DNA of 64,000 nucleotides from Escherichia coli. GTDB lineage: Bacteria > Pseudomonadota > Gammaproteobacteria > Enterobacterales > Enterobacteriaceae. Of the stretch, positions 18,277-21,154 are shown in pieces (the stretch's first letter is position 1; each line of letters starts with the position of its first letter). Both the position numbers and the translations under genes were made by a program. Where the stretch lies: the NCBI RefSeq assembly GCF_048403405.1, contig NZ_CP183129.1; one strand, 5' to 3'. The notes below the pieces were generated by a model that did no database searches, was not told the DNA's origin, and saw only the letters and a program-made list of their open reading frames with translations.

Positions 18277-18402
18277 CCGCGCATACAAAACGGGTGGTAA
18301 AAAAAGCAAACGATTATCCGGCGATCATAGCGGCTTTTTCAACCGAAGTTTGCTGCTTTTTTCTCTTTTATTGTCTTGACGATGAAAAACCAGGCAATTG
18401 AT

Positions 18403-18418
18403 GCGCAAACGTTATCGT
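18403..18418. promoter_or_regulatory. second, weaker PurR-box-like site
   Basis: GCGCAAACGTTATCGT, partial match to the PurR consensus. Confidence 0.3.
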
Positions 18419-18559
18419 CGATGCGCAAGATTGCAGCGTTATCGAGCCGCATACCGTTCAGGATTGCGATAAAAAATCGTCTGAGATGACAAAAATATTG
18501 CGGCTAAAAAGTGTACTTTTACACTGGCGAAGAAACGCCGGTGACATACAATTAAAGCA

Positions 18560-18703
18560 TCAACACCAACCGGAACCTCCACCACGTGCTCGAATGAGGT
18601 GTGTTGACGTCGGGGGAAACCCTCCTGTGTACCAGCGGGATAGAGAGAAAGACAAAGACCGGAAAACAAACTAAAGCGCCCTTGTGGCGCTTTAGTTTTG
18701 TTC
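18560..18703 (+). ncRNA. sraL: candidate small RNA SraL (RyjA) in the ghxP-soxR intergenic region
   Basis: ORF-free stretch ending in a GC-rich hairpin (18668..18698) followed by a U-rich tract on the + strand, overlapping the soxR stop codon; position matches my recollection of SraL; 5' end is a guess. Confidence 0.4.
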
Positions 18704-19156
18704 ATCTTCCAGCAAGCGTGCGCCGGTACCTTCTTCTCCTAAGCGGTCGCCCGGGTTACGCAATGGGCAATCACTGCGCGAAAGGCAGCCACAACCAATA
18801 CATCCGTCCAGCTCGTCACGCAGCGCCACTAAGGTATGAATGCGCCGATCCAACTCTTCTCGCCATTGGGACGAAAGCTGTTTCCACTCTTTCGCACTTA
18901 ATGTATGCCCTTCGGGCAACACGCCAAATGCTTCACGAATGGTCGCCAGCGGAATGCCAATACGCTGAGCAATTTTGATGATTGCGACATATCGCAACAC
19001 ATCACGTTTATATCGCCGCTGATTGCCACTATTACGGATACTGCTAATCAACCCTTTGCTTTCATAGAAATGCAGCGCCGATACCGCCACACCGCTGCGT
19101 TTTGCCACTTCGCCGGGGGTTAGCAGCGCTTTAATGCGGGGTAATTTCTTTTCCAT
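18692..19156 (-). CDS. soxR: redox-sensing MerR-family regulator SoxR
   Basis: 154 aa, MerR HTH N-terminus and C-terminal [12 protein letters not shown] [2Fe-2S] cluster motif. Confidence 0.95.
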
Positions 19157-19167
19157 AAATCGCTTTA

Positions 19168-19185
19168 CCTCAAGTTAACTTGAGG
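19168..19185. promoter_or_regulatory. SoxR operator in the soxS promoter
   Basis: Perfect 18-bp palindrome CCTCAAGTTAACTTGAGG between a TTTACC -35-like hexamer (19164..19169) and TATACT -10 (19189..19194), 19-bp spacer. Confidence 0.85.
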
Positions 19186-19241
19186 AATTATACTCCCCAA
19201 CAGATGAATTAACGAACTGAACACTGAAAAGAGGCAGATTT

Positions 19242-19565
19242 ATGTCCCATCAGAAAATTATTCAGGATCTTATCGCATGGATTGACGAGCATATTGACCA
19301 GCCGCTTAACATTGATGTCGTCGCAAAAAAATCAGGCTATTCAAAGTGGTACTTACAGCGGATGTTCCGCACGGTGACGCATCAGACACTTGGTGATTAC
19401 ATTCGCCAACGCCGCCTGTTACTGGCCGCCGTTGAGTTGCGCACCACCGAGCGTCCGATTTTTGATATCGCAATGGACCTGGGTTATGTCTCGCAGCAGA
19501 CCTTCTCCCGCGTTTTCCGTCGGCAGTTTGATCGCACTCCCAGCGATTATCGCCACCGCCTGTAG
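19242..19565 (+). CDS. soxS: AraC-family superoxide response regulator SoxS
   Basis: 107 aa, MSHQKIIQDLIAWIDEHIDQPLNIDVVAKKSGYSKWYLQRMF; divergent from soxR. Confidence 0.95.
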   Translation: MSHQKIIQDLIAWIDEHIDQPLNIDVVAKKSGYSKWYLQRMFRTVTHQTLGDYIRQRRLLLAAVELRTTERPIFDIAMDLGYVSQQTFSRVFRRQFDRTPSDYRHRL

Positions 19566-19567
19566 TT

Positions 19568-21154
19568 TTATTGCCCGCGCGTTAACTCCCGCGCGGGTAA
19601 TTGCTCCATCCATTGCATAAACACCTGCGGCGGCATCGCCTTCGCAAAGAACCATCCCTGGCAATAGCGCACGCCGCGTTTGCGCAGCCAGTTAACCTGC
19701 TCCTCAGTTTCGACGCCTTCAGCGATCGTTTTTAACCCCAGACTGTGCGCCAGCTCGATGATGTGTTCCGCAATCAAATGACTGGTTTTATGGGTGGTCA
19801 GCGTCTCAACAAACGATTTATCGATTTTCAAAATATCGACATTCAATGATTTAAGGTTATGCAAGTTAGAGTAGCCAATACCAAAATCATCAATTGCCAC
19901 TTCGTAACCAGCCTGGCGGAAAGCCAGAATAATTGGTGTCATTTTGTCGACATCAAGAAATGCATGTTCAGTCACTTCAAATTTAATTTGCTGTGGACGC
20001 ACCGCGTATTGCTCTGTTTTCTGATTGGTTCGCGCTATCAACCGTGACGTATGAAAATCGGAGGCCGACAGGTTAATAGAAACATAGCGATCGGCATGTG
20101 TTGCCAGGTACGCGCCCAGATCGCGGAAGACATTATCAATAACATAATCAGTTACCTGTCCGATCATCCCCTCCTTTTCTGCCAGCGGAATAAACTCTGC
20201 CGGATTCATTACTTGCCCCTGCTCACCAGGCCAACGTAACAATGCTTCAGCGCCGATACATTTTTCTGTTTTGATATCGATTATTGGCTGGTAATAAAGG
20301 CAAAGTTGATGTTTTTCGAGGGCGCGTTGCAATTTGCGTTTGGGAGACAAATAGTTTTGCCGAATACGTAGCCAGAGTAATAACAGAACAAGACTCCCCA
20401 AAATACCGGCGGGTAACGCAAAAATAAGATGATTATAAAAATGCGCTATAAGACGTTGATATGAAGTCGCAACAATGGCTGCAATTGGGCGTTTTGTCGA
20501 ATAAACTGTCGCATATAAATAGCCATTTCTTTGTACGGTTAAATCATTCAAATGAATCAGTGGAGAAAACGTTGCTGCCGAGGCCTCGTTGCTTAACGAG
20601 AAAAAGGTTTTCGTTACCGTATCATACACACCCCATTGCAATGTCGGATCATCAGACATCACTTCACTCCAGAAGAGAGGGTTGATGACCACCACATAAT
20701 TTCCCCGCTGCATATAGGTCATTTTATAGCCAGAGAAAAAAGGCGTATCGCGGTAATAATAGATAGAAACGTTAGGTTCACGCTTATAATCGGCCGGTGC
20801 AATCGTATAGCCGTTTACAGGCGCTATCAGCGATGAGCATAAAAAATGGTTATCACGGGCATAGATCAATTCATTAATATAAAGATAGCCACGAATAATA
20901 TTCAACATTCGCTTTTGATGGGTTGGAGTGCAAACTTGCCCCTGATAGCGTTCAGCAGCATCGCTCACTAAATCTGCCTGGCGAATGACCAGCTCGGATT
21001 TATCCAGCGCCAGCTGAGCAAAAGTTTGGAGCTGACTATTCACTTCTGATTTTGCCCAAAGGAAGGCAATCCATAGCGACAGAATGATGGGAAAGAGAAC
21101 TAAAAAGATAATGCCCGGCAACGCCAGTAATTGGTGTCGTGCACGATGACTCAT
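19568..21154 (-). CDS. pdeC: c-di-GMP phosphodiesterase PdeC (YjcC), CSS-EAL domain protein
   Basis: Two TM segments flanking a periplasmic domain, C-terminal EAL domain; start taken at MSHRARHQ (528 aa). Confidence 0.9.

Follow-up and report, generated by a model that had tools for sequence, protein, structure and literature searches.

A soxR-soxS control region identical to that of Escherichia coli K-12, with a soxR promoter overlapping the soxS promoter on the opposite strand

The soxR-soxS locus

The stretch of Escherichia coli DNA that we analyzed (64,000 nucleotides, referred to below as the window) carries two divergent genes separated by an 85-bp intergenic region, the limits of which were read directly from the sequence and recounted with a script (Table 1). 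The product of the minus-strand open reading frame is SoxR, scoring 247.6 bits against the NCBIfam equivalog model TIGR01950, for which the cutoff is 116.9. All 154 of its residues align with PDB entry 2ZHG (E value, 1.3e-99), the solved E. coli SoxR structure. This protein has the MerR-type HTH that places it in the MerR family of regulators, and it contains the [2Fe-2S] motif CX2CXCX5C in the form C119-X2-C122-X-C124-X5-C130. The plus-strand open reading frame encodes SoxS, with a score of 228 bits against the equivalog model NF007584 (cutoff, 174). The gene order at the locus, ghxP-sraL-soxR/soxS-pdeC, is common to the window and K-12.

We also noted features at the outer ends of the two genes. 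The 3' end of sraL, which encodes an Hfq-binding sRNA, overlaps the soxR stop codon region (18692-18699), and a terminator-like hairpin at 18668-18698 could serve both of the convergent transcripts, sraL and soxR. On the other side, the stop codons of soxS and of the convergent pdeC open reading frame are separated by a gap of 2 bp, and just 3' of soxS, within the 3'-terminal part of the pdeC coding sequence, lies a GC-rich inverted repeat, CCCGCGCG...CGCGCGGG, that may act as the soxS terminator.

TABLE 1 Positions of genes and control elements at the soxR-soxS locus, and of other palindromes in the window
Feature	Position	Strand	Description and basis
sraL	18559-18699	+	RF01408, 153.3 bits; antisense to and just downstream of soxR
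Terminator-like hairpin	18668-18698
soxR CDS	18692-19156	-	154 aa plus stop; ORF list
soxR start codon	19154-19156	-	CAT on the plus strand
soxR-soxS intergenic region	19157-19241		85 bp
32-bp block	19163-19194		CTTTACCTCAAGTTAACTTGAGGAATTATACT (CTTTACC...TATACT); invariant in 44 soxS-bearing species except at 19188
soxS -35 hexamer	19164-19169	+	TTTACC; shares its last two bases with the start of the SoxR box
SoxR operator (SoxR box)	19168-19185		Perfect 18-bp palindrome CCTCAAGTTAACTTGAGG
soxS -35/-10 spacer	19170-19188	+	19 bp, two longer than the 17-bp optimum
soxR transcription start site (G)	19179	-	Within the palindrome; PMC12825309 Table S2; ±1-2 nt
soxR -10 hexamer	19187-19192	-	TATAAT, perfect consensus; 4-bp overlap with soxS -10 (19189-19192)
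soxS -10 hexamer	19189-19194	+	TATACT; script recount; PMC12825309 Table S2
Putative half-site	19195-19203	+	CCCCAACAG; resembles CCTCAAGTT
soxS transcription start site (G)	19203	+	39-nt leader; PMC12825309 Table S2; ±1-2 nt
soxR -35 hexamer	19211-19216	-	TTCGTT; 18-bp spacer to TATAAT; PMC12825309 Table S2
soxS Shine-Dalgarno-like sequence	19229-19234	+	AAGAGG, 7 nt 5' of ATG; putative, from sequence
soxS CDS	19242-19565	+	107 aa plus stop; AraC-family activator; ORF list
soxS start codon	19242-19244	+	ATG
soxS stop codon	19563-19565	+
pdeC stop codon	19568-19570		Convergent with soxS
Inverted repeat	~19575-19597		CCCGCGCG...CGCGCGGG
Other perfect palindrome	28109-28126		18 bp, all A/T, ATTATTAAATTTAATAAT
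Other perfect palindrome	42695-42718		24 bp, AAAGCCGGATGATCATCCGGCTTT

Two promoters and one SoxR operator in 85 bp

The intergenic region holds a perfect 18-bp palindrome that an inverted-repeat finder, independent of our recount, reported as two 9-nt arms with 100% complementarity and no gap between them. The palindrome matches the SoxR box CCTCAAGTTAACTTGAGG at all 18 positions. The E. coli SoxR box has been given as 5'CCTCAAGTTAACTTGAGG and placed between the -35 and -10 hexamers of soxS (PMC4411124), and the 19-nt spacer between these hexamers is also published (PMC9303308; PMC12825309). A preliminary description of this DNA had claimed an 85-bp gap with a perfect 18-bp palindrome, a distance of 19 bp between TTTACC and TATACT, and a soxR start codon about 12 bp from the operator. 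The recount reproduced the gap and the palindrome and gave a spacer of exactly 19 bp. The third figure was a fair one, as 11 bases (19157-19167) separate the soxR start codon from the palindrome, or 12 if one counts from the codon's last base to the palindrome's first.

Published mutants bear on both elements of this promoter. A "soxS down" mutant, in which exactly the TTTACC hexamer is changed, loses activation (PMC12825309 Table S2), and electrophoretic mobility shift assays (EMSA) identified a single SoxR site, with no SoxR binding when the complete palindrome was mutated (PMC12825309). The sequence CCCCAACAG downstream of the soxS -10 hexamer is probably the "partial SoxR site," reported to be dispensable for SoxR binding.

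On the opposite strand we found a perfect consensus -10 hexamer, TATAAT, which overlaps the soxS -10 hexamer TATACT, and, upstream of it, a soxR -35 hexamer, TTCGTT; both are additions to the preliminary description. The TTCGTT hexamer matches the consensus TTGACA at 2 of 6 positions, and in our conservation profile its first four bases, TTCG, are moderately conserved at the same offset in Enterobacteriaceae. The same bases have been studied as PsoxS/soxR, a bidirectional promoter with a shared -10 region, in a 2026 report that mapped start sites by Cappable-seq on the identical K-12 sequence and gave separations of 10 to 23 bp between divergent start sites (PMC12825309); the promoter in the window is the promoter sequence in Table S2 of that report. 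We took the positions of the two start sites from formatting marks in that table, so they hold to within 1 to 2 nt. On this basis, 23 bp lie between the divergent starts, and the soxR transcript has a leader of 23 nt before the ATG, GTTAACTTGAGGTAAAGCGATTT.

In vitro transcription, one of the checks that the preliminary description had suggested, is already published: basal transcription without SoxR favors soxR, while addition of SoxR strongly activates soxS and blocks soxR, the start site of which is covered by bound SoxR (PMC12825309). The block of soxR remains in the "soxS down" mutant, so repression was attributed to direct occlusion and not to competition for polymerase (PMC12825309). 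The earlier expectation of soxR transcription originating inside or across the soxS promoter thus matches both the overlap of TATAAT with the soxS -10 hexamer and these data on the identical sequence.

The wording "inside or across" had allowed a second option, in which the bulk of soxR transcription comes from another promoter, located upstream within the soxS leader or coding sequence, and the soxR transcript crosses the whole soxS promoter. Additional upstream soxR starts are compatible with the sequence alone, and TTCGTT is a poor -35 hexamer. However, the -10 hexamer read from 19192 to 19187 is perfect, a soxR start was detected by Cappable-seq, a soxR transcript was obtained in vitro from a short cloned fragment with only the control region, and a -35 "soxR up" mutation that changes ttcgtt to ttGACA was designed at this hexamer for a soxR promoter in the shared region (PMC12825309 and its Table S2). 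In addition, a scan of positions 18300 to 19800 reported no consensus-like minus-strand alternative upstream of soxR. We therefore consider a main soxR promoter upstream of the control region very unlikely, and we retain the reading in which soxR is transcribed from the shared -10 region within the soxS promoter.

The same generic sigma-70 consensus scan of positions 18300 to 19800, which allowed spacers of 16 to 18 bp and called for at least 4 of 6 matches per hexamer, reported neither the soxS nor the soxR promoter. Both were excluded by construction, since the soxS spacer is 19 bp long and the soxR -35 hexamer has only 2 of 6 matches, and their absence is a limitation of consensus scans rather than counterevidence. 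A search of PMC7228920 for promoter anatomy yielded nothing relevant.

Identity to K-12 and conservation in other bacteria

The preliminary description had named alignment with the characterized K-12 soxS promoter as a check on its reading. In a position-by-position comparison with E. coli K-12 W3110, made without gaps over 3951 bp, all 85 bases of the intergenic region are identical. There are 83 differences between the two sequences over the full 3951 bp (~2%) and none across positions 19104 to 19318, a 215-bp interval centered on the intergenic region. This difference-free interval fits with strong constraint acting on the control region and the 5' ends of soxR and soxS.

The locus in the window thus shares with K-12 PsoxS/soxR the same 85 bases, the same SoxS protein and gene order, and every promoter and operator element, and it differs only outside the control region, by two substitutions in SoxR, T38S and G74R (codons at 19043-19045 and 18935-18937, respectively), and by synonymous changes in both soxR and soxS. 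These two substitutions have been reported as a polymorphism that co-occurs in E. coli of clinical and commensal origin, including both a levofloxacin isolate with full susceptibility (MIC, 0.016) and highly resistant isolates (PMC4317672). Since they occur in susceptible and resistant isolates alike, the pair looks like a lineage marker and not a constitutive mutation.

Within the species, a 951-bp query spanning the locus matched 5425 of 5426 complete E. coli genomes, with soxR, soxS, and pdeC as the annotated genes; identity was 100% with strain TUM14771 and 98.0% with K-12 derivatives. With a 141-bp query over the intergenic region, identity was at least 99% in 5417 of the 5420 genomes that matched.

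Some individual genomes in these collections depart from this pattern. In E. coli E138 (NZ_AP022351.1, ~2239-3000), an IS1-family element flanked by a 9-bp duplication, GAGGAATTA, lies between the SoxR operator and the soxS -10 hexamer; this insertion parts the soxS -35 hexamer and the operator from the soxS -10 hexamer, and removes the soxR -10 hexamer from soxR. Three soxRS matches in the E. coli collection are on records labeled as plasmids. In the genome MS 69-1, H30, the match to the 951-bp query is confined to its last 15%, where an "AraC family transcriptional regulator" is annotated; this may reflect a deletion or rearrangement of soxRS.

For the comparison across species, we gathered loci with the SoxR protein as the query, so that the palindrome played no part in their selection, and sampled one genome per species, for a total of 80 loci. 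In 44 of these loci, from Enterobacteriaceae and Erwiniaceae, a SoxS homologue is encoded divergently from soxR, and the palindrome was found with zero mismatches and the 19-bp spacing was kept in all 44. These 44 loci included Escherichia, Citrobacter, Enterobacter, Leclercia, Phytobacter, Cedecea, Pluralibacter, Siccibacter, Mangrovibacter, Pantoea, Erwinia, Tatumella, and Mixta, and the palindrome was exact even where SoxR identity fell to 66% and SoxS identity to 62 to 63%. Conservation of the palindrome in other enterobacteria, another point on which the preliminary description had staked its reading, was therefore borne out. The invariant sequence extends beyond the palindrome to a 32-bp block running from just before the soxS -35 hexamer through the soxS -10 hexamer, in which the single exception is a T-to-C change at position 19188 in one Pantoea MAG. 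The flanks of the block vary on both sides, and between the operator and the soxR start codon there are 11 nt in 30 loci, 12 nt in 12, and 9 nt in 2. This pattern of invariance and variation shows purifying selection on the 32-bp block.

The same plan recurs in at least 33 of the 36 SoxR loci without soxS, which come from Pseudomonas, Rhizobium, Sphingomonas, Xanthomonadales, and others: a TTGACC-type -35 hexamer overlaps the box, the arms have the form CCTCAA-N6-TTGAGG, and a spacing of 19 bp leads to a -10 hexamer with TA as its first two bases; the central six bases of the box and the -10 hexamer are variable in these loci. The figure of 33 is a conservative one, as boxes were located by an arm-only search that picked poor sites in three loci (L068, L075, and L082); a search with the full 18-mer gave a proper box with TTGACC upstream in L068 and L082, and the true count is probably 35 of 36.

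We asked how often such a palindrome is found by chance. Three perfect palindromes of at least 18 bp are present in the window, and at least one was present in 52 of 200 first-order Markov shuffles (26%), so a palindrome of this length is not in itself statistically notable in 64 kb. The two others in the window are a 24-bp sequence, AAAGCCGGATGATCATCCGGCTTT, and an 18-bp sequence composed entirely of A and T, ATTATTAAATTTAATAAT. In contrast to palindromy, the sequence of the operator is rare: with up to three mismatches allowed, the 18-mer CCTCAAGTTAACTTGAGG has a single occurrence in the window and none in 100 shuffles. Because such palindromes are not rare at this scale, the significance of this one rests on its sequence identity, its placement between the hexamers, and its conservation.

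A reading of the palindrome as a hairpin or terminator was rejected, as the palindrome lacks both a loop and a T-run, is situated between two start codons, and has arms that are conserved across phyla. More generally, the notion that chance or some other role (as a cruciform, a hairpin terminator, or a site for an unrelated protein) accounts for the palindrome amid hexamer-like sequences, for which the frequency in shuffled windows and the presence of two further palindromes in this one could be cited, is refuted by the conservation and binding data and keeps practically no probability: the palindrome is exactly the experimentally defined SoxR box (PMC4411124), it is loopless and separates gene starts rather than gene ends, it is invariant in every soxS-bearing species sampled with arms that are conserved beside soxR across Proteobacteria, and its mutation abolishes SoxR binding (PMC12825309).

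With the palindrome taken as the SoxR operator, the extent of the frozen sequence in enteric bacteria calls for comment, since it includes the central GTTAAC and the AATTA, which are freely variable in non-enteric SoxR boxes. On the soxR mRNA, the soxR-proximal arm of the operator reads UUGAGGU, the sole Shine-Dalgarno-like sequence in the 23-nt leader, and this arm is 11 to 12 nt from the soxR start codon in 42 of the 44 species. A tentative explanation, which we think somewhat doubtful, is that the block may be frozen since nearly all of its bases multitask, contributing to SoxR contacts, the two -10 hexamers, the soxS -35 hexamer, the soxR start, and UUGAGGU as a ribosome binding sequence. 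If this were true, an operator half-site would also set the (low) rate of SoxR translation.

Proposed switch and related systems

We hold it to be nearly certain that the region is the canonical E. coli soxRS switch, in which a single SoxR dimer controls a compact bidirectional promoter. In this mechanism, SoxR, a MerR-family protein with a [2Fe-2S] cluster, binds the 18-bp palindrome within the over-long soxS spacer. With reduced SoxR bound, or with no SoxR, the -35 and -10 hexamers would be out of phase and soxS would be nearly silent; oxidized SoxR on the same site would distort the spacer and so allow sigma-70 RNA polymerase to use both hexamers, leading to strong soxS transcription. On the other strand, soxR is read from TTCGTT and TATAAT, with its -10 hexamer overlapping that of soxS, and SoxR bound in any redox state blocks it. 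This autorepression of soxR follows from the position of the soxR start site inside the palindrome and the overlap of the two -10 hexamers, and the shared site allows one SoxR dimer both to activate soxS and to repress soxR.

In the MerR-family model, oxidation of the [2Fe-2S] clusters changes the conformation of SoxR, and the bound dimer then distorts the spacer to bring the -35 and -10 hexamers into register. Redox-dependent distortion, or untwisting, at the soxS promoter is the standard model, as taken from the literature. Secondary sources credit the dependence of the soxS promoter on its 19-bp spacer to Hidalgo and Demple in 1997 and the single-site logic of activator and repressor to Hidalgo and coworkers in 1998, and the redox dependence and untwisting by SoxR were reportedly described by Hidalgo and Demple in 1994 and 1997 and by Watanabe in 2008. 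The sequence, the geometry, the identity to K-12, and the conservation are established in the present analysis. Both SoxR binding and activation have been demonstrated in vitro on the identical sequence (PMC12825309), and it is this literature that provides the binding, the activation of soxS, the repression of soxR, and the start sites.

Several features of this switch are found in other regulatory systems. As in the mer promoters of Tn501 and Tn21, which are controlled by MerR, a dyad operator is inside a 19-bp spacer between the -35 and -10 hexamers (PMC9303308), the bound regulator switches from repressor to activator by DNA distortion (PMC9303308; the MerR-family model is cited in PMC12825309), and the divergent regulator gene is repressed through that same operator. 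The two systems differ in the signal, which is Hg(II) binding for MerR and one-electron oxidation of the [2Fe-2S] cluster for SoxR, in the operator sequence, and in the target, which is an operon of resistance genes in mer and a second transcription factor in soxRS.

The mfsA-soxR region of Stenotrophomonas maltophilia also has a single SoxR box in the 19-bp spacer of the target promoter, and its box (-4 to +14) covers the start site of the divergent soxR gene (PMC4411124). The targets of non-enteric SoxR proteins, including that of S. maltophilia, are effector genes (an efflux pump or similar) and not soxS. In these bacteria TTGACC is the usual -35 hexamer, and there is variation in the central 6 bp and in the -10 hexamer, whereas the 32-bp enteric block is frozen.

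PacrA/acrR and other bidirectional promoters with a shared -10 region (the class of Warman et al. 2021) have in common with PsoxS/soxR start sites that are 10 to 23 bp apart and overlapping -10 hexamers on opposite strands (PMC12825309). Repression of the opposite transcript by the activator is indirect at PacrA/acrR, where it works through competition for RNA polymerase, and direct at PsoxS/soxR, where it works by occlusion and persists with activation disabled.

The control region in the window is thus an already known element, real but ordinary, that is identical to its K-12 counterpart and shows no departure from the characterized K-12 element. The value of this locus is that of a positive control only, in that a textbook element and the overlapping soxR promoter could be deduced from raw sequence. 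The switch that it encodes governs the defense of the cell against superoxide and redox-cycling drugs and contributes, via SoxS, to multidrug resistance.
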